64,000 bases of DNA from Microcaecilia unicolor (taxonomy: Eukaryota): contig NC_044034.1 in assembly GCF_901765095.1 (NCBI RefSeq), positions 62,498,339 through 62,562,338 of the forward strand, given 5' to 3'. The notes under the pieces are model-generated. The model worked only from the letters and a program-made list of their open reading frames with translations, was not told the DNA's origin and did not search any database. Below are positions 21,062 to 57,979 of this stretch, in pieces. Within the stretch, counting starts at the first letter, position 1; the number at the start of each line of letters is the position of its first letter. The translations under genes were made by a program, and so were the position numbers.

Positions 21062-21360
21062 CAGGATCGGGAGGCGGGGCTGGTGGTTGGGAGGCAGGGA
21101 TAGTGCTGGGCAGAGTTGTACGGTCTGTGCCAGAGCCGGTGGTGGGCAGCGGGACTGGTGGTTGGGAGGCGGGGATAGTGCTGGACAGACTTGTACGGTC
21201 TGTACCAGAGCCGGTGGTTGGGAGGCAGGGCGATGGTTGGGAGGTGAGGATAGTGCTGGGTAGACTTACACGGTCTGTGCCAGAGCCGGTGGTTGGGAGG
21301 AGGGGCAGGTGGTTGGGAGGCGGGGATAGTGCTGGGCAGACTTATACGGTCTGAGCCCTG
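21062..21360. repeat. Tandem repeat (minisatellite) with a period of about 77 bp and about 4 copies
   Basis: Unit 'ggtggttgggaggcggggatagtgctgggcagacttgtacggtctgtgccagagccggt' is repeated four times with minor variants. Confidence 0.8.
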
Positions 21361-21739
21361 AAGAGCACAGGTACAAATCAAAGTAGGGTATACACAAAAA
21401 GCAGCAAATATGAGTTATCTTGTTGGGCAGACTGGATGGACTGTGCAGGTCTTTTTCTGCCGTCATCTACTATGTTACTATGTAACAGCAATGATGCCTT
21501 AACTGAAAAGGTGAATAAATAAATGTATAGTTATGTTGATGTAAATATGCTGGGGGGGGGGGTCGTTTTGTTTTTAATTCTTCAACAGGCATTTTTCAGT
21601 GGACGATGTTCTTCTGCCACACGGTGATCGTGATCTACAGTTTAATTGCCCTGAAGAGGGGGAGGGGGAAGAGACTGCTGTGCTCCAGAGCTGGAAAAAA
21701 AGATGGGGAAGAAAAGCTAATAATCATAAATACCTGGCT

Positions 21740-24214: not shown

Positions 24215-24470
24215 GCAACCCTCCTCTCCCCGCCTACCCTCCCAGCACCAGGCAGGCAGGCCTCCCTCCCAGCACCAGGCATCCCTCCCTCCCACCAAGC
24301 ACCAGGCCTCCCTCCCTCCCACCCAGCATTCAGCATCAGGCCTCCCACCCTCTCTGCCACCCAGCACCAGGCCTCCCTCCCATCCAGCATCAGGCCTCCC
24401 TCCCTCCGAGCACCAGGCTGCCCGCCCTCCCTCCCTCCTAGCACCAGGGCCCCCCCCTCCTCCGAAATTT
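24215..24470. repeat. Minisatellite with a unit of about 21-24 bp, 'cctccctcccagcaccaggc'
   Basis: There are about 10 tandem degenerate copies. They give Pro/Ser-rich pseudo-ORFs on both strands. Confidence 0.8.
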
Positions 24471-28705: not shown

Positions 28706-29305
28706 TACTTATGTACTTATGTAGCTTCACAGTCTCAGCTCGATAAGGCTTTAATAGTCCTTGCTCCCCTGATCAAACCATCACGAAATCAAACCACTGT
28801 AGCTTGTGCTGTATGTACAAATTCACTTATTACAGTGCAATCATTGACAACTCACTTGTAACCTACTAAAAAGTCTTTACAAAAATAGTCACTCCAAATA
28901 TTTAATTTATAATTTTGTAGCTCTATTGAAGCAGCACCAATAATGTGGTCTTACTGACATCCAAACTCCACCGTGTCTAGCTCAAGACTTCAAGTTGGTT
29001 CGATCTTCAGCTTCTTCAGGAGTTGAATCAAATTGCTGTACTCTACAGGTCCACAGCCCAACATGTGAATAGGCAGTGGTGCTGAATATATGTACAAGGT
29101 AGTCACTGCTACTGGCATATGTATAGCGGCTATATTCAGCCATTGTACATATGGCTAAGCACTATGATTTAGGATTGCTTTCCCAGTACTCTTCAACTTT
29201 TCTATTTGTAGCCTTATAGGATAATTTTATAAAAGATGTCTAAATTGCTTTTATAAAATAGGCACTTTTTCACGTACTCCGAAGTTGTAATTGTGTGCCT
29301 GTACT

Positions 29306-29707
29306 CAGGGCCGCCGAGGGGGGGGGAGCCAGGGGGGACAAAATTCCCCAGGCCCGGGCCTCCAAGGGGGGCCCGGCGCCGCAGTCCCACCCGCCCTCCG
29401 TCGTCTACCGTCTGCCACAGGGCCGGGCCCCCTGCATTGAAATCACAGCGCCTCTCACCTCTGTGTGAAAGCGCAGCAGGGCAGCAGATCGCCTCCCTTC
29501 GGGCCTCCTTCCCTCCCTTTGTCCTGCCCTCGTCTGACGTAACTTCCGCGAGGGCGGGTCACAGGGGGGGAAGGAGGCCTGAAGGGAAGCAATCTGCTGC
29601 CTGCAGCGCTTTCACATGGAGGTGAGAGACGCTGTGATTTCAATGCAGGGGGCGGGGCCCCAGGGGCAGCCTTGCCCCAGGCCCGGCCCAGTCTCTCAGC
29701 GGCCCTG
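29306..29707. mobile_element. hAT-like MITE of 402 bp with TIR 'CAGGGCCGC.GAG' and 8 bp TSD 'CCTGTACT'. The body is a GC-rich nested palindrome with an exact TGACGTAA at its centre.
   Basis: The left end is 'cctgtact|CAGGGCCGCCGAGGGGG' and the right end is 'CTCAGCGGCCCTG|cctgtact'. The internal ~70 bp arms 'ccctgcattgaaatcacagcgcctctcacctctgtgtgaaagcgcagcagggcagcagatcgcctcccttc' and 'gaagggaagcaatctgctgcctgcagcgctttcacatggaggtgagagacgctgtgatttcaatgcaggg' flank the core 'gggcctccttccc...cgtctgacgtaacttccgcgagggcggg...gggaaggaggcc'. The TIR start CAGGGCCG is shared with the 4.85 kb hAT-like element. Confidence 0.65.
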
Positions 29708-30082
29708 CCTGTACTCTACACATGTTCTGCATATTTTATGTTTAAATCATTTTTATTCAAACAAACAAATCCAAGTACATTGCTACAACAACTGTCTGTA
29801 GAAATATCCCATTTCATCCAGTTTGTAAACTAACCTCCCAATTGCTACCCACTACACCTTTCCCATCCCTCCCCTCACCCCTCCCTCCCAAACATCCCTC
29901 CTCATCATTAAGTCTATAAGTTCAACAGGTGGCTCCGGGCTGAGGGTCTTAAAGTGTTCCAAAAGGGGCTCCAACTCTGTTGAAAACTATCTCCAGCTTT
30001 GGAATTAAAATCTGTAATTCCCACCCGCTCAATACGCATTAGAAATAGCATGTGCATACACCACTGTTATAGTGAAGGGTAT

Positions 30083-33000
30083 TTATGTCAGCCACTCTGC
30101 CAGAATTACCTGCTTGGATACAATAATGGCCCTAGAGACAAAGGATGCAAATCCACACGGCATCGGGTGTCCCAACTTAGGCTGTCCAAACAAGAGTGCA
30201 GGGTCGTAATGCCAACCTGTCTTCCACAAGCTAGATATGTGAAGCATGATTGCTTTCCAAAAACTTGCAATGCCTTTACAGGACCAGAACATATGTCCTA
30301 GGGTCACACCACTGGCTCCACACTTCAGACTTGACCCCTAAGGAGAAAGTCCCATATGAAATGCCGTTCGAGGAGATATATATAAACGGAGGACAAATTT
30401 GTATTGTAACTTCTGATAAACGCTGAATCGAAAGTATATGCGATTTAATTTGCGCTGCAGTGATGTTTACTTGTAAATCTCTTTGCCACAAAGACAACAA
30501 TCTTGAATAATCCAACTCAGGTATTGAGTCCCGTGTATGCCTGTGATGAAAAGAAAGCAACACCTTATGCTGCACTTCTAAAGAGAAAGCAGATGAAAGT
30601 TCTTCTTGTATTTCCTCTGTCATTGACTCCCAAGGCAGCGATGATACATAATGCCACAGTTGAGCATAATGGAACTCATCAAAATGTGGCAAGGCAAATT
30701 CTACTTGGAGACCTTGAAAAGGTTTTATACGATCTTCTTTGGAAACCACCTGTAGTAAGTACACAATACCTTGCTTCTTCCATCTGCGGAAGACAGAATA
30801 CAGTTGTCCTGGTGCAAAGGCCGCATTATCACAAATTGCCAAATATGGCGTTACCTTTGCAGAAAAACGATGTAATTGGCAAATCCACCTCCAAACTGCT
30901 TTTGCGGACTTCATAATCAAAGAATGTTTTAACACATTTGGTATGGACTCACCATTTGTGTGCAAATAACTACTGAAATGAACTCCCAGGGAGAGTTGTA
31001 ACTCCATAGTTGTATTACAGTAATCTTGAGTGGCTCTAAACCAGTCATTAATATGCTCATGCCACTGGCAATAGTAAGAAATCTTATGCTAAGTAATCCC
31101 AACCCCCCGTACTCCACCGGTATATATAAGGTTGATATGGGAAGACGAGCTTTCCTACCTTGCCAGAGAAAACACTGAACCAATGTGTTCAGTTTCCTTT
31201 CATCCCCCCATTTCAAATACAAAGGTAGGATCTGAAAGACATAAAGCCATCTGGGGACAATAAACATATTGAATAATGCTATACGTCCTAACAATGAAAT
31301 AGGTAAGGAGCCCCATGCATGCAACCTCAATTTTGTCTCCTTTAATAACCACTGAATATTTTTTTCATATAACAAATTTAAATCTGCTGGAATGTGTACT
31401 CCAAAATATTTAATTGAGCCCTGTGCCCAGTTAAGGGGAAACTGTTCTCTCCAATTTATTTGCCTTCCTGTTAATACAGGAAGAGCAAAGGATTTATTTA
31501 AGTTCATCTTGAAACCAGAAATGTGCCCAAATTGCCTAATACTTGTAAGCAGCAACTCTAGTGATTGGGGTGGATTTGTCAATATCAGTAATAAATCGTC
31601 AGCATAAGCCAGTCTTTGATACATTGATCTGCAAGAGAGATGCCCTCTATCCCCTTTGTAAGCGAGAGCATCCGGAGCAATGGCTCTAATGATATCACAA
31701 AAAATAAAGGAGAGAGGGGACATCCTTGCCTAGTGCCTCTTTCTATAATAAATTCTTTTTCTTTAATACCATTAATTAACACGCATGCCTGAGGATGATA
31801 GTAGAGAGCTTGTATCGTTTGTAAAAACCAACCAGTAATTCCCATAGCAGCCATAGTCCTATCCCACCTGGTCAAAGGCCTTTTCTGCATCCAAGCTAAC
31901 CACCAAGAATGGAACACCTTTATCTCTGCGAGATGCCATTGCCAGTAGTAAACGTCTGACATTATGCGCCGCTTGATGGTGTCATACAAACCCCACCTGC
32001 TCAGATCCTATCAATTTTGGTAGACACTGTGCCAATCTTTCAGCCAATATTTTAGCTAACAACTTAATGTCTACATTTAGAAGCAATATCGGCCTATAGG
32101 AGTCTGCCTGCTCTGATGATTTACCCGACTTTGGTATTAAAGTTATCAACGCGGTATTAGCATAAATGGGAAATTTACCTTGTTATATCACCTCCTCATA
32201 ATATTCTAGCACGGAGGCCAGAACCGCTGGGGGTAAGGTCTTATAATAATCTCCTGTGAATCCATCAGGACCTGGAGCAGAATGAAATTTTAGCGACTTT
32301 ACCGCTTTTTGCAACTCAGTTAACGATAGGGGTGCGTTCAAGCAGTCCAGATCTGCTAAGGACAGTGTAGGTAAACCTGAGCGCTTTAAATAATCCAATA
32401 GATTTCGCTCATGAGGTATCAACTCTGCTTTATATAGGGAGGAGAAATATTCTGTGAATAGCTCCCTATTTCCCCTTGATCACTTGTAAGCACTCCACGC
32501 TTGTCCCGTAGGGCTGCCACGGTCCGAGGCCATCCCCAATTCTTAATTAGTCGTGCAAGCATTCGTCCCGGTCTATTACCAAACCTTTGCAATCTATACT
32601 TATAATAAAGAGATGACCTATGGGCATATTTTCAAAGCACTTTGGGAGGCTGTTCCATAGGTTTCTATGGAACTTTGGGAGGCTAAGTGCTTTGAAAATG
32701 AGCTTGCTAGTCTCTATTTTGTAAAATAGAGTATTGAGAGCTATTTGAGTGGCTTTTAAGTTCTCCAGAGTAGCCTTTGTAGGCCTTTGCACATGGGCCC
32801 GTTTAGCCCTTCGTAACTGTTTCTAAATGCAAAATACCTGCTGCTCTACGCTTTTTCTTCATACTACAAAATGCAATGCTGTCTCCCCGTATCACCACCT
32901 TCGATGCAGACCAAAATAATAGTGGCTGATTTTGAGCTTGTTCACCATTATTAGCCGCATACTAAGCCCACCTTATATTTATGTATTTCTGAAATTGAGG

Positions 33001-33704: not shown

Positions 33705-35071
33705 AATTTTAGAGTGCTTTATCGGGGAACTAATGCCCCCTACATTCCAAGATATTACTCATGTAGGCAAACGCTATTTAAAGAAACTAACATTGGTAAA
33801 GAGATATCCCCTATGCACATTCCTATCCCCTCCATTAAAACCTGTAAACATACATTCAGCAACATATTCATACAGATTCAATGCAATTTTGACCCTTCTT
33901 GCCCAGGTTAACAGTACCCTCAACCCTTCTATTTCCCGAGAACTCCTCCCCCTTCCCATGTAACCATTGTAAATCCAGTACAGGTCCCCTCATCCTTCCT
34001 ACCTTCCCTCCCCATTCCCCCCCAACCCTAAACTTAACCCAATCCATCTACCCAGGGAACAGACCTGGGGATGGAAGCAAAGATCACATTAAGTGCTAGG
34101 GACCCCAACCTCCAAATGCAACTGCTTATAGGCTATGTCACCATAATACACTATGTTAAAGCAACTAGTAATATATTTACTCCTGTACCACACCAACAAA
34201 TGCAACATGGATTAATCCGCATCAATCAATCTGTTGTTCAATAATGCTGATTTTGCCTCTGTTACAGTCTTGAAAGCTTGCCATTGACCTTGAATTGAAA
34301 CCCTTAATTGTGCTGGATATTGTAAAGCAAAATGAATTCTTTTATAAGAGCTGAGCAGAGAGGATGAAACTGTTGACGCTGCTTTGTGCGGGGGAGAAAT
34401 CTTGTAAAATCATCAGTATGTTGCGCCCGTCGTGCATCAGTGAGTCTCTCTGTAATTTAAACCCTCGAAGAATTTCAACTTTATGTCTGTAATTCAATAT
34501 TTTTGCCATAATTACTCTTGGTCAGTTCTGATCCTCCGATCTGCGCCCGACGCAATGTGCCCTTTCCACCACTACCGGGCCCATTGTGTCTGTAAGGGCC
34601 AATTCCTTAGCCAGCCAAGTCGCTAGGTTCCATTCAGGGAGTTTTTCTGTTAACCCCACTTTCTCCGAGGACAAGCAGGCTGCTTGTTCTCACTGATGGG
34701 TGACGTCCACGGCAGCCCCTCCAATCGGAATCTTCACTAGCAAAGTCCTTTGCTAGCCCTCGCGCGCCCGCGCGGCCGTCTTCCCGCCCGAAACCGGCTC
34801 GAGCCGGCCAGTCTTCTTTCGTCCGCACTTGGTACGGTTGTGTTTTTCGCCGTGTCGAGCCCCGGAGAGTCGACCTCGCGCGTCCTTTGTCTAATCGACG
34901 TGTTTTTTATTCGGAAAATATTAGAATTCGTTCGGGAAGTGCTCCGGAAGCCCCCTTGGGTTTCGTTTTGCCCCTTCCCGTATTTTCAGTCTTTGCCCCG
35001 GTAAGTTTTCTTTCGTCGTCGGGGTAGGCCTCTTTTCGGCCTCGGTCGAGATTTTTCTCCCTCAAAGTTTT

Positions 35072-37370
35072 TTGGTGCTCATTTTCGTCATTTTGGATTT
35101 TGATTTCGCCGGCGTGATTTTTCCGCCCATGACATCGAAGCCTTCCAGCGGCTTCAAGAAGTGCACCCAGTGCGCCCGGGTTATCTCGCTCACTGACAGG
35201 CACGCGTCGTGTCTTCAGTGTCTGGGGGCCGAGCACCGCCCTCAGGCCTGTAGTCTGTGTTCCCTTTTGCAAAGGCGGACTCAGGTAGCGAGATTGGCCC
35301 AGTGGAACGTTTTGTTCTCGGGCTCTTCGTCGGCATCGGCACCGGGGGTATCGTGTACATCGACGTCTTCAGCGTCCAGAGCTTCATCCTCGGCCGCCAG
35401 TGCATCGAGTGCATCGAGGCATCGGCCCTCTGCATCGGCGCCGAGACATCGGATAGCTGCATCGACGTCGGTGGTACCGGGACCTCGTCTGCTGATGTCG
35501 TCGGACGGTGGTGCATCGTCAGGTGAGGGCTGTCCATTCCCCTGCTGGTGGCGGTGAGCCTTCGGGTGGGTCTCCCCCTACCCTGAGGGCTCCTGCGGTA
35601 CAGCCCCCCCGAGACCGACCTCCTTCGGCCTCGGCCCCGAGGAAGCGACGGCTGGATTCTACATCCTCCTCGTCGGTACCGGGAAGCTCCGGTGACATGC
35701 TTCGTTCCAAGAAGTCGAAGAAGCATCGTCACCGGTCCCCTTCCCGTGTCGGTACCGAGAGCTCTGGGTCGCCGAGGGAGTCGGCACCCACCAGGCATCG
35801 GCACCGAGAGGACCGCTCACCCTCTGTTCAGGAGGTGTCGATGCGCTCCACTCTGGACAGCCCGGAACAGCCTCCACGCCCGGAACAGGTTCTGACGTCG
35901 ACGCCTGCATCAACCTCCATGCCTTTCTCTGCAGCCGCTCTGAACGAGAGCCTCCGGGCCGTTCTCCCAGAGATTCTGGGAGAGCTGTTGCGCCCTACCC
36001 CTCCGGTACCGGCGGTGCTTGCGCCACCGGTACCGTCGAGCGTGGCGCCGGCTGGCCCATCGCCCGAGGTGAGGTCTCCGGCGTTGGTGCCGCGTGCGGT
36101 GCCGGCTGCCGTCGCCTCCCAGGAGGGCTCCCCGACTACGTCGGCGGAGGGAGCTTCGCCGATGCGGGCGAGGGAGTCTACCTCTCGACGCCCCCATCGT
36201 GGACGTGGCTCCACGGAGTCGAGTCGGGCACGGTTGCAGACACAGGTCCGTGAACTTGTGTCTGACACCGAGGGTGAGGCCTCGTGGGAAGAGGAAGAAG
36301 ACCCCAGATATTTCTCTGACGAGGAGTCTGAGGGTCTTCCTTCCGATCCTACTCCCTCTCCTGAAAGACAGCTTTCTCCTCCTGAGAGTCTGTCTTTCGC
36401 TTCCTTTGTCCGGGAGATGTCTACGGCCATCCCCTTCCCGGTGGTTGTGGAGGACGAGCCCAGGGCTGAAATGTTTGAGCTCCTGGACTATCCTTCTCCA
36501 CCTAAGGAAGCGTCCACTGTTCCCTTGCACCATGTCCTGAAAAAGACATTGCTTGCGAACTGGACAAAACCATTAACTAACCCCCACATCCCCAAGAAGA
36601 TCGAGTCCCAGTACCGGATCCATGGGGACCCAGATCTGATGCGCACTCAGTTGCCTCATGATTCTGGAGTTGTGGATCTGGCCCTAAAGAAGGCTAAGAG
36701 TTCTAGGGAGCATGCTTCGGCGCCCCCGGGCAAGGACTCTAGAACCTTAGACTCCTTTGGGAGGAAGGCCTACCATTCTTCTATGCTCGTGGCCAAAATT
36801 CAGTCTTACCAGCTCTACACGAGCATACACATGCGGAACAATGTGCGGCAGTTGGCGGGCTTGGTTGATGCTCTCCCCCCTGAGCAAGCCAAACCTTTTC
36901 AGGAGGTGGTCAGGCAGCTGAAGGCGTGCAGAAAATTCCTGGCCAGAGGGGTGTATGACACCTTTGATGTTGCGTCCAGGGCCGCTGCTCAAGGTGTGGT
37001 GATGCGCAGGCTCTCATGGCTGCGTGCCTCCGACCTGGAGAATAGAATCCAGCAGCGGATTGCGGACTCGCCTTGCCGTGCAGATAACATTTTTGGAGAG
37101 AAAGTCGAGCAGGTGGTAGAGCAGCTCCACCAGCGGGACACCGCATTCGACAAGTTCTCCCGCCGGCAGCCTTCAGCTTCTACCTCTACAGGTAGAAGAT
37201 TTTTCGGGGGAAGGAAGACTGTTCCCTACTCTTCTGGCAAGCGTAGGTACAATCCTCCTTCTCGACAGCCTGCGGCCCAGGCTAAGCCCCAGCGCGCTCG
37301 CTCTCGTCAGCAGCGTGCGACTCAGCAAGGCCCCTCGGCTCCCCAGCAAAAGCAAGGGACGAGCTTTTGA
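35072..37370 (+). CDS. DIRS ORF1, gag-like, with an N-terminal CxxC...CxxC zinc-finger-like segment and a Ser/Pro/Arg-rich region
   Basis: ORF 35508-37370 of 620 aa is preceded in a neighbouring frame by 35072-35557 'CTQCARVISLTDRHASCLQCLGAEHRPQACSLCS'. Either a frameshift or alternative start lies near 35510, so the exact start is uncertain. The frame is continuous to a stop at 37370, which overlaps the ORF2 start as is usual for DIRS. Confidence 0.6.
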
Positions 37371-39192
37371 CTGGCTCCAGCAGAGCATAGCCGACATCCA
37401 AGTGTCAGTGCCGGGCGACCTGCCAGTCGGAGGGAGGTTGAAAGCTTTTCACCAAAGGTGGCCTCTCATAACCTCCGATCAGTGGGTTCTGCAAATAGTC
37501 CGGCAAGGATACACCCTCAATTTGGCCTCAAAACCTCCAAATTGTCCACCGGGAGCTCAGTCTTACAGCTTCCAGCACAAGCAGGTACTTGCAGAGGAAC
37601 TCTCCGCCCTTCTCAGCGCCAATGCGGTCGAGCCCGTGCCATCCGGGCAAGAAGGGCTGGGATTCTATTCCAGGTACTTCCTTGTGGAAAAGAAAACAGG
37701 GGGGATGCGTCCCATCCTAGACCTAAGGGCCCTGAACAAATATCTGGTCAAAGAAAAGTTCAGGATGCTTTCCCTGGGCACCCTACTTCCCATGATTCAG
37801 GAAAACGATTGGCTATGCTCTCTGGACTTGAAGGATGCCTACACACACATCCCGATACTGCCAGCTCACAGACAGTATCTGCGATTTCAGCTGGGCACAT
37901 GTCACTTCCAGTACTGTGTGCTACCCTTTGGGCTCGCCTCTGCGCCCAGGGTGTTCACAAAGTGCTTGGCTGTAGTAGCAGCAGCACTTCGAAGGCTGGG
38001 AGTGCACGTGTTCCCATATCTCGACGATTGGCTGGTGAAGAACACGTCCGAGGCAGGAGCCCTGCAGTCCATGCAGATGACTATTCGCCTCCTGGAGCTA
38101 CTGGGGTTTGTGATAAATTACCCAAAGTCCCATCTTCTCCCAGCGCAGAGACTCGAATTCATAGGAGCTCTGCTGGATTCTCGGACGGCTCGCGCCTATC
38201 TCCCAGAGGCGAGAGCCAACAACTTGTTGTCCCTCGTCTCTCGGGTGCGAGCGTCCCAGCAGATCACAGCTCGGCAGATGTTGAGATTGCTGGGCCACAT
38301 GGCCTCCACAGTTCATGTGACTCCCATGGCCCGCCTTCACATGAGGTCTGCTCAATGGACCCTAGCTTCCCAGTGGTTTCAGGCTGCTGGGGATCTAGAA
38401 GACGTGATCCACCTGTCCACGAGTTTTCTCGAATCCCTGTATTGGTGGACGATTTGGTCCAATTTGACTCTGGGACGTCCTTTCCAAATTCCTCAGCCAC
38501 AAAAAGTGCTGACCACGGATGCGTCTCTCCTGGGATGGGGAGCTCATGTCGATGGGCTTCACACCCAAGGAAGCTGGTCCCTCCAGGAACGCGATCTACA
38601 GATCAATCTTCTGGAGTTGCGAGCGATCTGGAACGCTCTGAAGGCTTTCAGAGATCGGCTGTCCCACCAAATTATCCAAATTCAGACAGACAACCAGGTT
38701 GCCATGTACTACGTCAACAAGCAGGGGGGCACTGGATCTCGCCCCCTGTGTCAGGAAGCCGTCAGCATGTGGCTCTGGGCTCGCCGTCACGGCATGGTGC
38801 TCCAAGCCACATATCTGGCAGGCGTAAACAACAGTCTGGCCGACAGGTTGAGCAGGATTATGCAACCTCACGAGTGGTCGCTCAACTCCCGAGTGGTGCG
38901 CCAGATCTTCCAAGCGTGGGGCACCCCCTTGGTGGATCTCTTCGCATCTCGAGCCAACCACAAAGTCCCTCAGTTCTGTTCCAGGCTTCAGGCCCACGGC
39001 AGACTGGCATCGGATGCCTTCCTCCTGGATTGGGGGGAGGGCCTGCTGTATGCTTATCCTCCCATACCTCTGGTGGGGAAGACTTTGTTGAAACTCAAGC
39101 AAGACCGAGGCACCATGATTCTGATTGCTCCTTTTTGGCCGCGTCAGATCTGGTTCCCTCTTCTTCTGGAGTTATCCTCCGAAGAACCGTGA
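37315..39192 (+). CDS. DIRS ORF2, reverse transcriptase, RNase H and the post-RNH domain; 625 aa, intact
   Basis: RT motifs include 'YFLVEKKTGGMRPILDLRALNKYL', 'LDLKDAYTHIPI' and 'FPYLDDWLV'. The RNase H has 'LTTDASLLGWGAHVDG' and 'IQTDNQVAMYYVNKQGGTGSRPL'. The C-terminal segment 'LLYAYPPIPLVGKTLLKLKQDRGTMILIAPFWPRQIWFPLL' is typical of DIRS. Confidence 0.9.
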   Translation: MRLSKAPRLPSKSKGRAFDWLQQSIADIQVSVPGDLPVGGRLKAFHQRWPLITSDQWVLQIVRQGYTLNLASKPPNCPPGAQSYSFQHKQVLAEELSALLSANAVEPVPSGQEGLGFYSRYFLVEKKTGGMRPILDLRALNKYLVKEKFRMLSLGTLLPMIQENDWLCSLDLKDAYTHIPILPAHRQYLRFQLGTCHFQYCVLPFGLASAPRVFTKCLAVVAAALRRLGVHVFPYLDDWLVKNTSEAGALQSMQMTIRLLELLGFVINYPKSHLLPAQRLEFIGALLDSRTARAYLPEARANNLLSLVSRVRASQQITARQMLRLLGHMASTVHVTPMARLHMRSAQWTLASQWFQAAGDLEDVIHLSTSFLESLYWWTIWSNLTLGRPFQIPQPQKVLTTDASLLGWGAHVDGLHTQGSWSLQERDLQINLLELRAIWNALKAFRDRLSHQIIQIQTDNQVAMYYVNKQGGTGSRPLCQEAVSMWLWARRHGMVLQATYLAGVNNSLADRLSRIMQPHEWSLNSRVVRQIFQAWGTPLVDLFASRANHKVPQFCSRLQAHGRLASDAFLLDWGEGLLYAYPPIPLVGKTLLKLKQDRGTMILIAPFWPRQIWFPLLLELSSEEP

Positions 39193-40331
39193 AGATTGGA
39201 GTGTTTTCCGACCCTCATCACGCAGGACGAAGGGGCTCTTCTGCATCCCAGCCTCCGGTCCCTGGCTCTCACGGCTTGGATGTTGAGAGCGTAGACTTTG
39301 CCTCTTTGGGTCTGTCAGAGGGTGTCTCCCGCATCTTGCTTGCTTCCAGGAAAGATTCCACTAAGAGGAGTTACTTCTTTCTGTGGAGGAGGTTTGCCGT
39401 CTGGTGTGACAGCAAGGCCCTAGATCCTCGCTCTTGTCCTACACAGACCCTGCTTGAATACCTTCTGCACTTGTCTGAGTCTGGCCTCAAGACCAACTCT
39501 GTAAGGGTTCACCTTAGTGCAATCAGTGCATACCATTACCATGTGGAAGGTAAGCCGATCTCAGGACAGCCTTTAGTTGTTCGCTTCATGAGAGGTTTGC
39601 TTTTGTCAAAGCCCCCTGTCAAGCCTCCTACAGTGTCATGGGATCTCAATGTCGTTCTCACCCAGCTGATGAAACCTCCTTTTGAGCCACTGAACTCCTG
39701 CCATCTGAAGTACTTGACCTGGAAGGTCATTTTCTTGGTGGCAGTTACTTCAGCTCGTAGAGTCAGTGAGCTTCAGGCCCTGGTAGCCCAGGCCCCTTAC
39801 ACCAAATTTCATCATAACAGAGTAGTCCTCCGCACTCACCCTAAGTTCCTGCCAAAGGTCGTGTCGGAGTTCCATCTGAACCAGTCAATTGTCTTGCCAA
39901 CATTCTTTCCCCGTCCTCATTCCTGCCCTGCTGAACGTCAGCTGCACACATTGGACTGCAAGAGAGCATTGGCCTTCTATCTGGAGCGGACACAGCCCAA
40001 CAGACAGTCCGCCCAATTGTTTGTTTCTTTTGATCCCAATAGGAGGGGAGTGGCTGTGGGGAAACGCACCATATCCAATTGGCTAGCAGATTGCATTTCC
40101 TTCACTTACGCCCAGGCGGGGCTGGCTCTTGAGGGTCATGTCACGGCTCATAATGTTAGAGCCATGGCTGCGTCGGTAGCCCACTTGAAGTCAGCCTCCA
40201 TTGAAGAAATTTGCAAAGCTGCGACGTGGTCATCTGTCCACACATTCACATCTCATTACTGCCTGCAGCAGGATACCCGACGCGACAGTCGGTTCGGGCA
40301 GTCAGTTCTTCAGAACCTGTTTGGGCTTTAG
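39193..40331 (+). CDS. DIRS ORF3, tyrosine recombinase (YR), the C-terminal part of the long 37458-40331 frame
   Basis: The YR region has 'SKRSYFFLWRRFAVWCD', 'VTSARRVSELQAL' (the catalytic R box), 'GHVTAHNVRAMAAS' (the H-x-x-R box) and 'ATWSSVHTFTSHY' (the catalytic Tyr region). The exact YR start inside the overlapping frame is uncertain. Confidence 0.8.
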
Positions 40332-40861
40332 GATCCAACTCCACCCCCCGAGGGCCCTGTTTGTTCTGTTCCAGGCTGCACTCTCAGTTAGTTGGTAAAT
40401 TTTTTTAGGTCAATCTCAGTTATGTCCTCGCCGTTGCGAGGCCCAATTGACCATGGTTGTTGTTTTGAGTGAGCCTGGGGGCTAGGGATACCCCATCAGT
40501 GAGAACAAGCAGCCTGCTTGTCCTCGGAGAAAGCGAATGCTACATACCTGTAGAAGGTATTCTCCGAGGACAGCAGGCTGATTGTTCTCACAAACCCGCC
40601 CGCCTCCCCTTTGGAGTTGTGTCTTCCCTTCTCTTGTCTTGCTACATATGAAACTGGCCGGCTCGAGCCGGTTTCGGGCGGGAAGACGGCCGCGCATGCG
40701 CGCGAGGGCTAGCAAAGGACTTTGCTAGTGAAGATTCCGATTGGAGGGGCTGCCGTGGACGTCACCCATCAGTGAGAACAATCAGCCTGCTGTCCTCGGA
40801 GAATACCTTCTATAGGTATGTAGCATTCGGTATACGCAAGTTGTTCCTGTGGGAGCGGTTT

Positions 40862-45074: not shown

Positions 45075-46604
45075 GGTAAAGAATATTTTTTAATTACACT
45101 TTTTTTTTCCAATCTAAAATATTTTTATTTTGCATAACTCTGTAATAAGAGCACATCTCGCTCACATTTGCCCACGCAGGGGCTCATAAATACTTTACTA
45201 CACTACTACATCTAAAACCAACTCATCACTATATCCACTACAACAAATAACAAGATCATCACAAAGACAACCACCACAGCCCAACTAAACCTTGTACTCC
45301 TCAGATACAACATCCCCCTCCCCTTCACTCTCACCATCTCCAGCTCCAACTCAGCTTAAGAGCACCTCGTGGTTTTTTGGAGCACTCTCTCTCCCCCTCC
45401 CTCTCCACTCCCCTCCCCCCTCCTATAAGGCTCCATTGACCTAAATACTTGTCAATCGCTGTTGTAAGCGAACCCATCTTCCCTTATGTCGCCATGTACC
45501 CTCCCTACGGTAAGCCGTTAGTCTCTCCATTTGTATTAACTGACCCAATTTACATTTCCAATCACCCAATGTCGGGGGATCTACCCTCTTCCAGTACTGT
45601 GCTATGAGGCACTTAGCTGCTGCCAGCTCCCAGCGTAACCATTTCCGCTCCTCCCAAGATTCCCTCTCATTATGTAAGCCCAAGAGACACACCAAAGGGC
45701 TGCACACCAAGGATGATCCAATCAACTTTACTAATACTTTCATAACATCTTGCCAAAAAGGTACCACCCCGGAGCATGACCACCATATATGTATAAAAGT
45801 ACCCCTCTGTGAACCACACCTCCAACATAGATCCGACGCACTGGGGTACATCCTCTTCAATCTCTCAGGTGTGTAATACCATCGGGATAAGACTTTTATA
45901 TGCATTTGCCTGCACCAAAACACATACCGAGGCTTTCTGCACCTCCCCACAAATAACTTCCCACTCCTGATCAGAAAAACAGTAATTTAAATCCTCCTCC
46001 TAAGCCCCCTGAAAACCAAATGGCCTAGGGTCATATTCCCTCAAAAATTTGTATATCACCAGTATTGGTCTGGGAACCTTCTTCAACAAAAGCCACAGAT
46101 TTTCCAGACTCTCCCTTTCCTGTGGATTCCCCCCCCCCCCCAACCCACTGTCCCCATTAACCTAAATTTGTTTATTAATACATTGGAGGTCATTTTTATC
46201 ACTATTTTAATTACTATATTTGTATTTTTAAATTATTGGTATTGTCTTTTACATACACACTTCTTATAAACATTCTTTTAAAACAATTTTATTTTTTTTT
46301 TGGTTAAAATTAATAATACAAATTTTTTTTGGTTAAACTTAATAATATGGTACACAAATGAATATAGGAATTTAAACCCATGTTTACATGTGTTCATTTG
46401 ATTCATTCATCAGAATCAGATATGGATGTTTATACATAGATATGTTCGGTTTATATGTGGTTGGTTTTTATTTATAGATGTTCTTGAACATTTTCACCCA
46501 TTTTGATGGATGGATTTTCTTAAGTTTGTACATACTTTATACACACACATATGTATTCCTAAAGTATTTCTAATTATTTGGTAATGTCCTTTTTATATAA
46601 ATAC

Positions 46605-46900: not shown

Positions 46901-46995
46901 CATGGTGATGCTGTTTTATCATTACACTATATGTTGCCTATGTTGTTTTTATTATCATTATTATTTTGTAATTATTATTATTATTCTCATTTTTA

Positions 46996-48437
46996 TGCCA
47001 CTATCCAGCTTGTTTCCGAAAGAGAAAGACGCCCATATTTCGACCCTAATCGGGAGATGGGCGTCTTTCTCCCGTTTGCGACCAAATCGGTATAATCGAA
47101 AGCTGATTTGGGGCGTCTTCAACTGCACTCCGTTGCAGGAACGACCAAAGTTGACGGGGGCGTGTCGGAGGTGTGGTAAAGGCGGGACTGGGGCGTGGTT
47201 ATCGGCCGAGGAGAGATGGCCGCCTTCGGCCAATAATCGAAAAAAGAAAGGCGGTTTTACTGCAATTTTGGGTCACTTTTTTTGGACCCTTTTTTTTCAT
47301 GAACAAGTCCCAAAAAAGTGCCCCAACTGCCCAGATGACCACTGGAGGGAATCGGGGATGACATCCCCGGGCTCCCCCAGTGGCCACTAACCCCCTCCCA
47401 CCAAAAAAAAAGAACTTGAAAAACCTTTTTTTCCAGCCTGTATGGCAGCCTCAAATGTCATACCCAGCTCCATGACAGCAGTATGCAGGTCCCTGGAGCA
47501 ATTGTTAGTGGGTGCAGTGGACTTCACCCAGGTGGGCACAGGCCCATCTCCCCCTACCTGTTCGAACTTGTGGTGGTAAATGGGAGCCTACCAGACCGCC
47601 CCCAAAACCCACTGTACCCACATATAGGTGCTCCCCATCACCCCTTAGGGCTATGGTAATGGTGTAGAGTTGTGGGCAGTGAGTTTTGGGGGGGATTTGA
47701 GGGGCTCAGCACCCAAAGGAAGGGAGCTATGGACTTGGGAGGTATTTTACTTTCGTTTTTATGCTTTACAAGTGCCCCCTAGGGTGCCCAGTTGCTGTCC
47801 TGGCATGTGAGGGCAGTGGCGTTCCAAGGGGCGCTGACACCCGGGGCAGATCGCCGATGCGCCCCGCCCCCCCGGGTGCAGTGCCCCCCCCCCCGTGCAG
47901 CGCCCCCCCCCCCCCCGGCGAAGGGACACCCCCCCCACCCCGGTGAAAGAACCCCCCCGGTGCACGCCGCTGGTCAGCGTCGTTCGTTTCCATGCTCCCT
48001 CTGCCCCGGAACAGGTTACTTCCTGTTCTGGGGCAGAGGGAGCATGGAAACCAACGACGCTGACCGGCGCGTGGCACCCCCCCCAGCGGCGTGCACCCGG
48101 GGCAGACCGCCCCCACTGCCCCTCCTTGGTACGCCACTGTGTGAGGGGGACCAGTGCACTACAAATCCTGGCCCCTCCCACGACCCAATGCCTTGGATTT
48201 GATTGTTTTTGAGCTGGGCGCCTTCGGTTTCCATTATCGCTGAAAAACGATACTGCCCAGCTCAAATCCGCACAAATTTGATGCATTTGGCCGGCACAAA
48301 CTGTACTATCGAAAAACAAGATGGACGTACATTTTGTTCGAAAATACGGTCTGTCCCGCCTCTTCACGTACCCGTTTTCGGACATAGACACCCATGGAGA
48401 TGGGCGTTCGCGTTCGATTATGCCCCTCCACATGCTT
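46996..48437 (+). repeat. Interspersed repeat R2, copy 1, of about 1.1 kb. It has inverted termini 'cgaaagagaaagacgcccat' and 'atgggcgttcgcgttcg' and many subterminal GACGCCCAT and ATGGGCGTC motifs. The 326 bp MITE at 47814-48139 interrupts this copy.
   Basis: The copy is collinear with 49330-50392. Shared blocks include 'cgtgtcggagg', 'cagatgaccactggag.gaat.ggggatgac', 'cagcctcaaatgtcatac...cagcagtatgcaggtccctggagca', 'gtggtggtaaatg.gagcc' and the terminal 'cgattatgcccctccacat'. Confidence 0.6.
47814..48139. mobile_element. hAT-like MITE of 326 bp with TIR 'CAGTGGCG' and 8 bp TSD 'TGTGAGGG'. The body is a GC-rich palindrome with a ~45 bp-arm hairpin.
   Basis: The element reads 'catgtgaggg|CAGTGGCGttcc...ggtaCGCCACTG|tgtgaggg|ggaccagtg'. 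The central hairpin has 'ggtcagcgtcgttcgtttccatgctccctctgccccggaacagg' and 'cctgttctggggcagagggagcatggaaaccaacgacgctgacc' as its arms, with C-homopolymer-rich flanks. The R2 copy at 49330-50392 provides the empty-site comparison. Confidence 0.7.
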
Positions 48438-48803
48438 TATTACTAGACCCCTGAGGCAGGCGTTATGTAACGCCGAAACACGACCCATGTTGGGTCACTT
48501 ATTAATAGAGGACTCCTGTTGTCTCAGTCTTGAAGGCCCAGTTTTGCTTTTTTTGTTCGTATTCATATATGTAGCAATGGTGTACTCCCTACTGGATGCT
48601 TGTTTGTTTATTTATTAGGATTTATTTACTGCCTTTTTGATGTACCAAGGTCGTGTGAACAAGAAATGTAAAGTTTCTGACCAAACCACCATGTGGTTTA
48701 GGATAATGAAATATACTGACAGTTCATATGTCTGTTACCTAAGTCATGATACTCATTCAGCAAAGACAAAAATATATTTCTTCTTCATGCTATTCATATT
48801 TAG

Positions 48804-48925: not shown

Positions 48926-49329
48926 GTAATGTTTCATTCCTGCCTTTTGTTCTCAGGTTTGCATGTTTTTCTGTTGGAATTAAATTGTTGGTGGTGTGGG
49001 TATTTGTACACAAGTATTCAGAATACAGCCGTTTGGCTGATCTATGGACTTCAAACATATGACCCAATTAGAGCTTTCTACTCTAAATTGCACTGGCTTC
49101 CAATTGAGGCATGAGTACAATTTACATTTAAGCATTACAGTGTCCCAAAATTCTATGTTGAGTTGCTCCATCTTAAATGTCTGACCTGATTTCTTTACTT
49201 CATGGAGCAAATACTGTATTTAATACTCGTAATCTATTTATGTTGCATTTCCCAGCTACAAACAAGTTCCATGAAACAATTGCTTTCTATACCATATCAG
49301 GCAGCAACCATTTGGAACATATTCAGGCT

Positions 49330-50392
49330 TATTTTCGAAAGAGGAGGATGCCCATTTTTCGACACAAATCGGAAGATGGGCGTCCTTCTCACAGGGTCGC
49401 CCAAATGGATATAATGGAAAGCCGATTTTGGGAGTCCCCAACTGCTTTACGTCACGGAGACGACCAAAGTTCCCAGGGGCGTGTCGGAGGCGTAGCGAAG
49501 GCAGGACTTGGGTGTGCCTAACACATGGGCATCCTCGACCCATAATGGGAAAAAAAAGGGCGTCCCTGACGAGCACTTGGACGACTTTATCTGGTCCTCT
49601 TTTTCTAATGAACAAGGCCCAAAAAGGTGCCCATCTCCAGATGACCACTGGAGAGAATTGGGGATGACCTCCCCTTACTCCCCCAGTGGTACCTAACCCC
49701 CTCCCACCCTCAAAAGTCATCTTTAAAAATCTTTTGTGCCAGCCTTTTTGCCAGCCTCAAATGTCATACTCAGGCCCATCACAGCAGTATGCAGGTCCCT
49801 GGAGCAGTTTTAGTGGGTGTATTGCACTTCAGGCAGGTGGACCCAGGCCCATCCCCCCCACACACCTATTACACTTGTGGTGGTAAATGTGAGCCCTCCA
49901 AAACCCACTATACCCATATCTAGGTGCCCCCCTTCACCCGTAAGGGCTATGGTAGTGGTGTACAGTGGTGGGTAGTGGGTTTTGGGGGGCTCAGCACACA
50001 AGGTAAGGGAGCTATGTTCCTGGGAGCAATTTCTGAAGTCCACTGCAGTGCCCTCTAGGGTGCCCGGTTGGTGTCCTGGCATGTGAGGGGGACCAGTGCT
50101 CTATGAATGCTGACTGCTCCCACGACCAAAGGGCTTGCATTTGGTCGTTTTTGAGATGGGCGTCCTTAGTTTCTATTATAGCCGAAAATCAGAAACGACC
50201 AAGTCTAGGGACGACCATCTCTAAGGACGACCTAAATGTCAAGATTTGGGCGTCCCCGACCGTATTATCGAAACGAAAGATGGACGTCCGTCTTGTTTCG
50301 ATAATACGGGTTTCCCTGCCCCTCCACCGGGAAATTTTGTGAAGATGTCCTCAGCAAAACTTGGCGTCCCCTTCGATTATGCCCCTCCACAT
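49330..50392 (+). repeat. Interspersed repeat R2, copy 2. It is uninterrupted at the position homologous to the MITE insertion in copy 1.
   Basis: At the homologous position the copy reads '...gtgcccggttggtgtcctggcatgtgaggg|ggaccagtgctctatg' with a single 'tgtgaggg', so it is an empty site. The terminal motifs match copy 1. Confidence 0.6.
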
Positions 50393-50959
50393 CACTCGCT
50401 ATTAGATCTTTTAGATATTATCTAATATTTAGTAAAAAAAAAAACTGAAAACTTTTCTTTTCCAGAAATATAGATGGGCAGATACTGATTGATTTTTTTT
50501 TTTTTTTTTAAATTATCAACTTTATTTAACTAATTTAATTGAGTTATTGTAACTCCAGACGTAATGACCTGATATCTTGGTTCTGTGATCCACCTTAGTT
50601 GTAATGTAATATAATGTAAAGTATTTGGCTGCACAATTTTATTAAGAACCATTCTGCATATGTAAGACACATTTTACATGTGGAAAAAAAAGCTTTATAA
50701 AATTATCAAGGCTGCACGTCAATCACAATTAATGTAATATATATTGACAGCAATTAAAAATATTAGTCACAGTTAATAAAATTAAGCTCCCGGGGTACCT
50801 TTTCTTCTCCCTGCATGGCCACCATTACTTTCTCCTTCTCTTTCTCTTCTTGTTGCAGCCTGCATTGCTTTCATTGGCTGTTTAGCCCGGGAGTGCCTGA
50901 TTGGCTCTTTGCCCAGTAAGCCAAAGAGGAGTGTCACTATTGGGGAGAGTGCTGAATAT

Positions 50960-51130: not shown

Positions 51131-52119
51131 AGTACTAGGCATGTGGGCCTCCTCATGGCCACCCTGCTGCAGTCTTGTATCCTTTCTGCCCCCTGCTGCA
51201 GTCTCTCATCCTTTCCGGGTTCCCCCACACCACAGTCCAGCATCCTTTCTGATCCCCCTCCTCCTCCCCCCTCTGTCTCAATCCTGCATCTTCTCAGGGA
51301 CCCCTCCCCCCACCTCCTCTAGACTGCTCCCTGCCTGCATACCTGAATGGTGCCTCAGGCATACAGGCAGGTAGCACACAGTCTGGGGGGAGGAAGAGAG
51401 ATGCTTAAGTGACTACATCTCTCTTCCACTCTGTTCTCCTCCCCCCCCCCAAGGCACTGTGCTGTCTGTCTACATGCCTGATCTGTGAGTCGCAGATCAG
51501 GCATGCAGACAGGACACAGTCTGGGGGGGGGGGGGGAGGACAGGAAAGAAAGACAGAGGCAGTGATGGGGAAGAGGAGGAGGACAGGAGAGAAAGAGATA
51601 CAGTCATTGAGACTGCATCTCTTCCCTCCTTTCCCCCTGTTCTTGTTATGGTTATTTTATTAATAAATACAATATTGTTATTTTAAGTTTTCCTTGCTTC
51701 CTTTGTTTTTAATCGTGTGATTAAACATTTGTAATCAAAACGTACCCCTAAAAACGTAGCCCCTTATAGTTTTGCTGTGTATACTTTTGAAATACTGTAC
51801 AATACAGAGAAGCTGCATGTTTCTTTTGTTATAAAAGTCATCTTATATAAAGAAGCAGAGGTTTGTAGTTTGGGGATCATATCCAACCTTTCAACCAGAT
51901 GAATAGACTGATGCAAAGCCAGAACCCTCTACTGATAGTGATGTAATTGTTCCTTCCAGAGTGATAACTGACCAATTTGGGAGTTTCTTTGTTGAAAGAT
52001 GGGTAGGCTTTTGGAGCCATTTGAGGTCATGAAGTGAGATTTGACATTAGAGAGTGTTGAAATGTTCTAACCTTATGACCCACTCAGCCTTCTAGGGTTA
52101 CTTGTCCTCCATGTGTTGC

Positions 52120-54189: not shown

Positions 54190-56820
54190 ATTGAGGTCTG
54201 AGGGGGCAGTATTGTTATCCATCCCTAATTTGGCTAGGGTACGTTTTGAGGAGGCTCGGAAGAGTTCCTTATGTTTGGCAAGACCTGTGATATACAATCG
54301 GCTGTTCCATAGCGTCCCACAGATCAATCCAGAGACTTGTGGGTTGCGTCCCTCTACCAGCAGGTTGGAATTGGTTCGTCCGATAGTAGACTCGTTTCTG
54401 GAATCTCCTTGCAAATCTCCCGCCAAGGTGTGGGCAGTTCGTCACACCCTCCTCAACTTACAACAACTGGGAGCTGTCCAGCCTGTACTCCCAGCAGAAA
54501 GAGGGTGCGGTCGATACTCCATTTATTTTGTGATGCCAAAAAAGGGCGGTTCTTGGCGACCTGTCCTAGATCTCAAGTGCTTCAACAGGTCCTTACGGGT
54601 TCGGCATTTCCGCATGGAAACCCTCCGCTCGGTGATCGCAGCGGTACAGCCAGGAGAGTTTTTGACATCTCTCGATCTCAAAGAGGCCTATTTACACATT
54701 CCAATTTGGCCTCTCCACAGTCGTTTTCTTCGCTTTGCAGTGCTCTGTCGTCATTTTCAATTCAAAGCGATGCCCTTCGGCCTAGCCACAGCACTTTGGA
54801 CTTTTGGAAAAGTCCTTTCTGAGATAGGCCGCCACTTCGACAAGGACCTTGGGAAAAGTGGCGGCCTATCTCAGAAAGGAAGGGATTCAAGTCCATCCTT
54901 ATCTAGATGACTGGCTTGTGTGGGCGTCTTCTTTCGAGGAGATTCAATGGGCAACCAACAGAGTGGTCAGGTTGCTTCAGTTGCTTGGTTGCGTGATCAA
55001 CTTCCCAAAGTGCAGCCTTACGCCTTCCCAGACGCTGGAATACTTGGGAGTGTACTTCGATACCCGAACAGAGATAGTTTCTCTTCCTTCAGCTTGAGCG
55101 CAGCGGTTGCAGGGTCAGTTGCGAGCTCTGTTCCAAACTCCGAACCCGCAGACTTGGGACTATGTACAAGTTCTGGGTTCCATGGCCTTCACCTTGGACG
55201 TCGTAAAGTGGGCCAGAGCTCACATGCGCCCCCTGCAGTGGCACCTTCTGAGCCATTGGTCTCCTCTCTGGGAGGATTACGAGGTTCAGGTGCCATATTC
55301 GACCCGTCTGCACACAATCATGCACTTGTGGTTCATTCAAAAGAATCTGGTGTCGGGCATTCTTCTGCAAACCCCAGAATGGAAGATCGTGACCACAGAT
55401 GCGTTGCTGTCTGTTTGGGGGGCTCATTGCCTCCAACAGACGGCCTAGGGCATTTGGACCTCGACGGAGGCGTCTTGGTCCATCAACCGCTTGGAGTTGT
55501 AGGCGATTCGTCTGGCCCTTCGGGAGTTACTGTCTCTTCTGCGTGGTTGCCCAGTTCGAGTTCTCTCGGATAATGTGACGGCGGTCGCCTACGTAAACCG
55601 TCGGGGACACCGGGTGTGCACCACTAGCGTGCGATGCAGCCCTGATTTGCCATTGGGCAGAGACTCATCTCTCTCTCTTGACGGCGGCTCATATAGCGGG
55701 GTAGAGAATATGCAAGCGGACTTTCTCAGTCGCCACCAGTTGGAGCCGGGGGAGTGGACACTCTTCCCTCTGGCCTTAGATCAGATAGCTTCACGTTGGG
55801 GGATGCCGGTGATGGACTTAATGGCCACCACATTCAATGCAAAGTTTCCCCGTTTCTTCAGCAGAGGAAGATAGCTGGGCTCAGAAGGCATCCATGCTCT
55901 TCTACAACCTTAGCCCAGGGGCCTGCTCTATGCCTTTTCCTCTGGCCTATAGTGGGCAGGTTACTGACTCACATTGCCAGTCATTCCGGTCAAGTGATCC
56001 TGGTGGCCCCAGATTGGCCCAAACGTCCCTGGTAAGTTGATATGGTCAGGCTCCTGTTCGATCGTCCGCTCCGGCTCCAGGCGCAGGATGGTCTCTTGCT
56101 GCAGGGACCAGTCATGATGGAGGATCCCTCCCCCTTTGGTCTTACGGCCTGGCCCTTGAAAGGGCGAAGTTGAGAAGGAAAGGATATCTGGATGTGGTTA
56201 TCGCTACGAAGCTTCAGGCTCGGAAAAGATCCACCTCGATAGCTTATGCTAGGGTGTGGCATACTTTCGATTCATTGTGTGCAAGTTCGGGATTGTCAAC
56301 GGCTTTGGCTTCGGTATCGGTTATCCTCGTATTTCTTCAGGATGGTGTACAGAAATCATTCTCATTGAGTTCTCTTAAGGTGCAGGTGGCAGCTCTGGCA
56401 TGCTTTAGAGGCCAACTTCAGGGGGTGTCGATCGCCTCCCACCCGGATGTGGTTCGTTTTTTGAGGGGCGTAAATTGGTTGCGTCCTCCGCATGTGCCAG
56501 TTCTGCCATCCTGGAACCTTAATCTAGTTCTCAAAGCGCTTCAGCGTCCTCCTTTCGAACCCTTATGGGGATTACGGTTAAGGATTTTACCTTGAAGGCA
56601 ATTTTCCTAGTAGCCGTTACTTCAGCTCGGAGAATTTCAGAGTTGCAGGCTCTTTCTTGCAGAGACCCCTTCCTGCGTTTTACAGAGGCAGGAGTATCGA
56701 TTAGGACAGTTCTTTCGTTTTTGCCCAAGGTGGTTTCTTGTTTCCATTTGGGGCAGTCTCTGTATTTGCCGACTTTTCGCCGGGAAGACGTGGGATGTAC
56801 CCAAGTAGTCCTCAAGTAGG
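54190..56820 (+). mobile_element. DIRS-like retrotransposon copy 2. It is 5' truncated with no gag, frameshifted, and its YR is truncated at 56819.
   Basis: ORFs 54191-54910 ('YSIYFVMPKKGGSWRPVLDLKCFNRSLRV...LDLKEAYLHIPIW'), 54849-55097 ('HPYLDDWLVWA'), 55107-55448 and 55575-55874 (RNase H 'VTTDALLSVWGAH', 'AVAYVNRRG'), 55754-56035 ('VILVAPDWPKRPW') and 56170-56819 (YR N-terminus and middle, 'VTSARRISELQAL') lie in successive frames. Together they are collinear with the intact copy at 37315-40331. Confidence 0.8.
54190..56820 (+). pseudogene. DIRS RT, RNase H and YR pseudogene segments (copy 2)
   Basis: Multiple frameshifts separate the domain pieces and the 3' end of the YR is missing on this strand. 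Confidence 0.7.
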
Positions 56821-56829
56821 GCGGGACAC

Positions 56830-57480
56830 CCCCAACCCGGCAGAAATCACCGACTAGCCAAACACCGCATCCTGCCGAGCTGCCACATCCACCCGATAAT
56901 GATTAGTGAACGTATGGACCGAAGCCCATGTAGCGGCTCTGCAGATATCTTCCAGAGAAACCAAACAGGACTCTGCATAGAAGGAAACCTGAGCTCGCGT
57001 AGAATGAGCACGAATTTGCGCAGGGGCTCGCTTGCCCAATGCCATGTAGGCCAGTGATGGCCTCCCTCACCCAATGGGCTATGGTGACCTCGGAAGCCAT
57101 ATGACCCTTCTTACTGCCTCAAAAAAGGACGATGGTCAGAGAGACAAAAGTTATTCGTCACCTCTAATCCAGAGCCCCCCCACCCAGATTTACTGTCTGC
57201 AGTTTTGTTTTGGTTGGTTAGTTTTTTCGGATTTCGTTGTTCTGAATGTTCCTTCATTTGATTAAATAAGAAAAACAAATAAATTTGGAAGTGGTGGAAG
57301 TATGTTGGGCATTTGGTCTGACAATGTCAGGAGAGTTTTCTATTGTTTCCATTCCACTGCTTTGGTATCGTTCATACTGAGGTTTACTTGGTTGCACAGG
57401 TCCACATATAGCAAATCTCTGAGGTTCTCTCTGTCTCCACCTGCTGGTAGAGGGACACAACCCACAAGTCTCTGGATTGA
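56830..57480 (-). mobile_element. Inverted DIRS fragment abutting copy 2 tail to tail. It holds the YR C-terminal catalytic segment and a piece of the region just upstream of the RT.
   Basis: ORF 56854-57045(-) 'IRAHSTRAQVSFYAESCLVSLEDICRAATWASVHTFTNHY' is homologous to the copy-1 segment 'HNVRAMAASVAHLKSASIEEICKAATWSSVHTFTSHY'. The reverse complement of 57400-57480 matches 54330-54400 'cccacagatcaatccagagacttgtgggttgcgtccctctaccagcaggt'. Confidence 0.6.
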
Positions 57481-57979
57481 TCTGTTGGGAGTAATGGAAA
57501 GAAAATGATCAGGTAAGAATTAATTTTTCCCTACTGTTTCGGAGACATGACATTATTTAAGATGCATCTTCAAGGGCTACCTTTTTCCTGATATTTGACC
57601 ACCAAATGAAGGGGGGGCAGGATGATTGACAATCTGGTGACAGATGTGCATATTTGTGTCTTAGAGGGGAAGATCCCCTTTGTAGAGTAGGGAGGTTGAT
57701 GGGGGAAGGTGTTTGTTTTATGTGTTTTTTTATTGTGAAATGTTTTGGATGGAAGCAGACAATAAATGTTTAAAACCATTACTGAAAAACCTGAATAAAG
57801 TTATTGGCCATTTACAGCATGTTCTTCATGTTCAGTGTCTTGTTGATACTTGATAATATTGAACTTGAGTGTAATATATTTGTGCATCTAGGAGTGTGAT
57901 CATCATATGATATAAAAATTTCGGTAGCAGAGTTTTTCACTGAGGACCAGCATGACAGCTAGTTCTCCTTCCATTTCAG

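Follow-up and report, generated by a model that had tools for sequence, protein, structure and literature searches.

The maize element Ds1, a member of the hAT superfamily that is mobilised by Ac, has 11-bp terminal repeats (CAGGGATGAAA), and its mobilisation has been demonstrated experimentally. In vertebrates, hAT is by far the commonest superfamily producing 8-bp duplications. Its transposases combine a BED finger, an RNase-H-like DDE core and a hAT dimerisation domain. Two weak target consensuses, NTNNNNAN and NNNTANNN, are known for hAT elements. According to a survey of vertebrate elements, an 8-bp duplication and the terminal motif YARNG are typical of the superfamily (PMC3014272). The same survey describes terminal repeats of 14-16 bp such as CAGTGGTTCCCAACCT and CAGTGRTTCCCAAA, non-autonomous families whose members measure 288-330 bp, and the family-specific target patterns NTCTAGAN and NNTNNANN (PMC3014272). 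In Anolis carolinensis, CAGTGGTTCCCAACCT is the 16-bp terminal repeat of hAT-N3_AC, and CAGTGRTTCCCAAA is the terminal repeat of hAT-HT3N1_AC, which is 326 bp long (PMC3014272). The silkworm family BmMITE-15 has the terminal repeat CAGTGGCGTACCTA, and the silkworm families related to it have only CAGTGGCG in common (PMC2997013).

We analysed a 64-kb stretch of DNA, here called the window, in which a 326-bp segment interrupts one of two copies of a repeat. The segment is probably a non-autonomous class II (cut-and-paste) hAT DNA transposon, whose insertion site lies in copy 1 of an older interspersed repeat of about 1.1 kb. It resembles the non-autonomous hAT families of Anolis in its 8-bp duplication, its CAGTGG start, a ...TTCC.AA... 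stretch, termini of 14-16 bp, a length of about 300 bp, the lack of coding sequence and the vertebrate host. However, in a comparison confined to the termini, its terminal repeat departs from theirs after position 6 (CGTWCCAAGG against TTCCCAACCT). Its target, TGTGAGGG, falls outside their NTCTAGAN/NYYTARRN preference, and the element itself has a very high GC content, C-rich tandem units and a hairpin with 57-nt arms.

A literature search on the terminal repeat gave one relevant match, the silkworm MITEs (PMC2997013). BmMITE-15 is also about 300 bp long with an 8-bp duplication of no fixed sequence, and its terminal repeat opens with CAGTGGCGTACC, 12 nt that agree fully with the right terminus found here (PMC2997013). 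The match is limited to these 12 nt, five of which are the superfamily motif, and BmMITE-15 differs in its insect host and in being AT-rich (65% AT). We found no evidence of common descent of the two. Ds1 is likewise a short non-coding derivative with an 8-bp duplication, which keeps only its termini and is moved in trans. Its host is a plant and its sequence is unrelated, and the mobilisation shown for Ds1 is deduced from sequence for the present element.

A filled and an empty target site in two repeat copies

Direct reading and a MAFFT alignment of 46990-48440 against 49325-50395 placed the extra segment of copy 1 at 47814-48139 of the window. As located by alignment and profile search, the filled copy of the host repeat (copy 1) spans 46991-48439 on the plus strand, the repeat proper being 46991-47813 and 48140-48439, and the empty copy (copy 2) spans 49319-50392 on the same strand. 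Features given below without a strand are unstranded. The copies align well on either side of the insertion point. Copy 2 contains one large gap of 334 columns, made up of the 326-bp insert and one 8-bp duplicate, and the insert length of 326 bp given in the original prediction is thus borne out.

A perfect 8-bp direct duplication, TGTGAGGG, flanks the insert at 47806-47813 and 48140-48147, as found by reading, by alignment and by the blind scan described below. In copy 2 the octamer occurs once, at the homologous point 50082-50089 (reading and alignment). The order in copy 1 is ...CTGGCA TGTGAGGG / CAGTGGCGTTCCAAGG...CCTTGGTACGCCACTG / TGTGAGGG GGACCAGTGC, and copy 2 reads ...CTGGCA TGTGAGGG GGACCAGTGC, with no insert. 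The pair of filled and empty sites with an 8-bp target-site duplication, which had been proposed from the sequence, was confirmed by both methods, with two octamers in copy 1 and one in copy 2; the boundaries 47814-48139 are exact. The insert starts with CAGTGGCGTTCCAAGG (47814-47829, plus strand), whose first letters CAGTG fit YARNG, and ends with CCTTGGTACGCCACTG (48124-48139), which on the minus strand reads CAGTGGCGTACCAAGG. These 16-nt termini are inverted with one mismatch (15/16, 94% complementary), and the 16-bp terminal inverted repeat of the element is CAGTGGCGTWCCAAGG.

The whole window was also scanned blindly for perfect 8-bp direct repeats abutting 12-nt inverted termini with no more than one mismatch and a spacing of 60-3000 bp. 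Exactly two elements were obtained in the 64 kb, at 47814-48139 and 29306-29707, and no such structure appeared in 100 first-order Markov shuffles of the window. A relaxed scan anchored on YARNG returned the same two elements (47814-48139 and 29306-29707) and none in 30 shuffles. The insertion, its boundaries and the footprint of an 8-bp staggered cut are therefore direct observations. We read the segment as a class II element because its inverted termini abut the duplicated target, the paralogue has a single target and the composition is foreign to the repeat. That the segment is an inserted DNA transposon flanked by an 8-bp duplication is almost certain.

The host repeat is non-coding and about 1.06 kb long. 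It contains hairpin modules such as GAGAAAGACGCCCAT...ATGGGCGTCTTTCTC, and the motifs ATGGGCGTC / TTCGATTAT recur at each end. Neither copy (46991-48439 and 49319-50392) shows clear terminal repeats or a clear target-site duplication, and neither blastn nor an nhmmer profile search found a third copy in the 64-kb window. Local segmental duplication as the source of the two copies was rejected, as their flanks have no similarity; the unrelated flanks therefore indicate separate copies of an interspersed repeat.

Copies 1 and 2 are 75.8% identical over 1050 aligned positions (24% diverged, K2P 0.29). The 24 positions of the duplication and the terminal repeat (8 + 16) contain one difference, against about seven expected if they were as old as a K2P of 0.29 (Poisson P about 0.007). 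This test presupposes neutral evolution and termini without a mismatch at the time of insertion. With one difference instead of about seven, the insertion is clearly and considerably younger than the separation of the repeat copies, in relative age only. The claim that the element had inserted after the copies diverged thus agrees with 1/24 differences against 24% divergence of the repeat.

Structure of the 326-bp element

From left to right, the element consists of the left terminus, a subterminal motif, C-rich units, a central hairpin, a second subterminal motif and the right terminus. The subterminal motif is an 18-nt repeat, CACCCGGGGCAGATCGCC, at 47838-47855 on the plus strand, with a second copy in direct orientation at 48094-48111 (plus strand, 17/18). 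It contains the core CCGGGGCAGA, and a near-identical CCGGGGCAGA is also present in both hairpin arms. The 18-nt repeat with its CCGGGGCAGA core is a candidate transposase-binding motif. About five C-rich units of 19-25 bp, arranged in tandem (~100 bp), occupy 47859-47958 on the plus strand. Runs of 7-14 C residues occur in these units; in the element as a whole, five such runs lie to the left of the hairpin and one to its right.

The central hairpin (47959-48078) has arms of 57 nt at 47959-48015 and 48022-48078, which are 88% matched and enclose a loop of 6 nt; the innermost 44 nt of the arms pair at 42/44 positions. Folded as single-stranded DNA, the 326-bp element has an energy of -116.9 kcal/mol (z = -16.6). 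At 73% GC, it stands well above the host repeat (52%) and the window (45%). CpG dinucleotides, too, are more frequent in it relative to expectation, at an observed/expected ratio of 0.72 where the window has 0.44. The original prediction described a GC-rich palindrome with a hairpin of about 45-bp arms and C-homopolymer flanks. The GC content and the arms hold up fairly well, given the 42/44 pairing of the inner part. Over its full length the element is no palindrome: it contains a hairpin, the C-rich array lies in the left part with none on the right, and the terminal repeats stand 129 nt from the hairpin on the left and 45 nt on the right. The C runs are present, mostly on the left, but they are no hallmark of such elements, as runs of this kind occur throughout the window.

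A 224-aa ORF spanning the element matched no Pfam family and had no homologue among 5.8 billion proteins; the element, 326 bp and 73% GC, is therefore taken as non-coding. The hairpin was also considered as a known RNA or miRNA precursor. The whole window gave no Rfam match at the gathering threshold. At permissive thresholds some twenty miRNA-precursor models, unrelated to one another, matched the hairpin on both strands, with scores of 38-56 bits against gathering thresholds of 76-137 bits; the best match reached 56 bits against a threshold of 76. An identity as a known RNA was rejected, since all scores are far below gathering and many unrelated families match alike. Such sub-threshold matches are a generic effect of any long perfect hairpin. 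The likeness to MITE-derived hairpin loci for small RNAs, represented by the plant MIR1120 and MIR1862 models, consists in a long near-perfect hairpin within a short transposon. In contrast to those loci, the scores here are far below gathering (38-56 against 76-137 bits), unrelated families score equally, and the hairpin is known from its letters alone.

Superfamily assignment and rival histories

The assignment to hAT, as proposed originally, is supported by the 8-bp target-site duplication and by 16-nt termini (15/16) that start with CAGTG, which agrees with YARNG. hAT is the best assignment because of these two features and because reptile hAT families match in the length of the termini and in size. 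The element is most likely hAT-like, to judge from just the duplication length and the CAGTG motif. The octamer TGTGAGGG fits none of NTNNNNAN, NNNTANNN, NTCTAGAN and NNTNNANN, a single site being set here against statistical preferences. By its length (326 bp, below about 800 bp), its non-coding sequence, its terminal inverted repeats and its target-site duplication, the element agrees with the structural definition of a MITE. The label also implies a family of many homogeneous copies, and here there is a single copy within the 64-kb window. A blastn search of the element against the window returned only the element itself and its own hairpin, that is, one copy in 64 kb, and no hAT transposase and no further matching terminal repeat were found elsewhere in the window. 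Searches for both termini at the observed spacing and for a 20-mer shared by the two hairpin arms gave no match in metagenome, prokaryotic and viral contigs, collections that contain no vertebrate genomes and are uninformative on copy number.

MITEs of the PIF/Harbinger, Tc1/mariner and piggyBac types (Tourist/Stowaway) were rejected, since they need a duplication of TWA, TA or TTAA, respectively, and the duplicated target here is the octamer TGTGAGGG. It is unlikely that the segment is a non-autonomous DNA transposon of another superfamily with duplications of about 8 bp, such as P (including 'Pegasus-like' MITEs), Merlin, Mutator-like, Novosib or Zisupton. The length of the duplication is not by itself specific to hAT: P, Merlin and some Mutator-like elements also produce 8-bp duplications, and the 7-8 bp expected of P agrees with the octamer. 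Merlin and Mutator-like termini start with G. Yuan and Wessler are said to have given CANRG for P termini in 2011; CAGTG has T at position 4, where this pattern requires a purine, a point of modest weight. A terminal repeat of 16 bp is typical of hAT, and CAGTG fits the hAT motif YARNG (PMC3014272). On the other side, the silkworm BmMITE-15, with its 8-bp duplication, its length of 300 bp and its repeat CAGTGGCGTACCTA, is classed as Pegasus-like and not explicitly as hAT (PMC2997013).

Other histories of the locus were weighed against insertion into copy 1. The 326 bp could have been original to the host repeat and lost from copy 2 by a microhomology-mediated deletion between 8-bp direct repeats. 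Deletions between short direct repeats do occur, and the window offers no more than two copies of the repeat from which to judge the ancestral state. However, the ends of the segment coincide exactly with 15/16 inverted termini that abut the octamers, which is not expected of a random internal segment; its GC content of 73% against 52% for the repeat is expected of foreign DNA and not of an internal part of the repeat; such structures occurred 0 times in shuffled sequence; and the two octamers are identical despite the 24% divergence of the repeat. We consider this deletion very improbable. The same small chance is given to a history in which both copies once carried the element and copy 2 lost it by precise excision or by gene conversion. 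Cut-and-paste elements do excise, and the site could also be restored if the two octamers recombined. hAT excision, however, normally leaves footprints at the donor site, and the alignment shows none in copy 2. This history would also need two independent insertions at one octamer, or an insertion in the master copy of the repeat, and, given the unrelated flanks of the repeats, the copies did not arise by a recent local duplication. Assemblies are prone to errors at GC-rich hairpins and homopolymers, so an artefact at the hairpin, or a chance resemblance, was also considered. Against this, the joint occurrence of an 8-bp duplication, 15/16 termini and an exact indel boundary was found in 0/130 shuffles, and a second element of the same design and independent sequence is present in the window at 29306-29707. 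This explanation is extremely unlikely.

In the preferred reading, that of a hAT-like insertion, the element would have been mobilised in trans. A transposase encoded elsewhere in the genome, of the superfamily that we infer from the termini and the duplication, would recognise the CAGTGGCGTWCCAAGG termini and probably also the subterminal motifs of the CCGGGGCAGA type. It would excise a donor copy and insert it at TGTGAGGG; the target would be cut with a stagger of 8 bp, and filling in the gaps after integration would give the duplicated octamer. The element would encode nothing and would now be a passive insert, and its GC-rich hairpin core may have arisen as a structural by-product in the formation of such short derivatives.

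Neighbouring repeats and biological meaning

The second element found by the blind scan, at 29306-29707, is 402 bp long with 69% GC, and its termini, CAGGGCCGCYGAG (12/13), start with CAGGG. A perfect 8-bp duplication, CCTGTACT, lies at 29298-29305 and 29708-29715 and fits the NNTNNANN pattern. Inside the element are nested inverted repeats with arms of 61 nt and 53 nt. Its termini resemble CAGAGSCGGYCC of Anolis hAT-N6 to N8 (PMC3014272). By these features it is a second hAT-like non-autonomous element, unrelated in sequence to 47814-48139. The region 18993-20611 is a 1.6-kb GC-rich palindrome with termini GGCCC(AG/TC)ATGATCAAAAGC (17/19), a TAA duplication at 18990-18992 and 20612-20614, nested inverted repeats and G/C runs of up to 18 nt. 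The TAA duplication and the GGCCC... termini are the signature of PIF/Harbinger and place it in a different superfamily than hAT.

The architecture of the 326-bp element had been said to match that of palindromes at 18985-20612 and 29306-29707. The likeness stands for 29306-29707, with its 8-bp duplication and CAGGG termini, and fails for 18993-20611, with its TAA duplication of the PIF/Harbinger kind. The three GC-rich elements are unrelated in sequence, as had been stated, and only G/C homopolymer tracts match. A common origin of the three was rejected, since these tracts are all that they have in common and occur throughout the window. Runs of at least 8 G or C residues number 30 in the 64 kb, reach 21 nt and in many cases lie outside recognisable elements. 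This unusually high density looks like a genome-wide property rather than one of these elements.

Further repeats were seen in the window. An AT-rich inverted-repeat structure with arms of 119 nt (92%) lies at 2193-2595, and a palindrome of about 150 bp, between C10 and G14 runs, lies at 51412-51563. Two arrays are minisatellite-like, one at 21069-21369 with four 75-bp units of 77-91% identity and the other, C-rich and with a spacing of 23-61 bp, at 24216-24461.

The window as a whole is a transposon-rich landscape of vertebrate type with LINE and DIRS-like elements. Fragments of LINE ORF2 with long open frames occur at 5-1747 and, on the minus strand, at 11536-13668, 30276-31723 and 45441-45950; the first three are reverse-transcriptase ORFs. 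A 710-aa LINE ORF has a reverse-transcriptase domain and about 31% identity to its best database proteins, from the frog Leptobrachium, teleosts and lizards. The DIRS-like retroelement at 34674-40791 has 139-nt inverted terminal repeats (98%) and is apparently intact. Its ORFs encode a 620-aa gag-like protein with a weak LAP2alpha match, a 625-aa reverse transcriptase/RNase H and a 957-aa protein with a SAM-like domain of the phage-integrase (tyrosine-recombinase) type. The best database relatives of these proteins are 48-51% identical and come from turtles, the salamander Pleurodeles and lizards. An exact look-up of the reverse-transcriptase ORF gave no record, and with identities this low the host species itself is taken to be absent from the protein database. 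By these relatives, the host appears to be an ectothermic vertebrate. A degraded second DIRS-like copy is present around 54191-57499.

A nested insertion is an ordinary, textbook event in a transposon-rich vertebrate genome and carries little weight beyond annotation. The element belongs to a very well-known kind, as a member that is new or at any rate has no name here. A more far-reaching reading, in which the hAT family is still or was recently active in the host and in which, in addition or instead, the 57-nt-arm hairpin is processed into small RNAs as a MITE-derived regulatory locus, seems quite improbable. Signs in favour of recent activity are the perfect duplication, the 15/16 termini and the CpG observed/expected ratio, which is 0.72 where the window has 0.44. 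Among vertebrates, active hAT elements are a rarity. The exact termini CAGTGGCGTWCCAAGG are usable as a seed for a repeat library of the genome. The clean internal pair of filled and empty sites means that this lineage had at least one active cut-and-paste family with 8-bp duplications at a time when the host repeat had already spread. The family, if young and numerous, would add one more case to the few vertebrates in which hAT elements were recently active.
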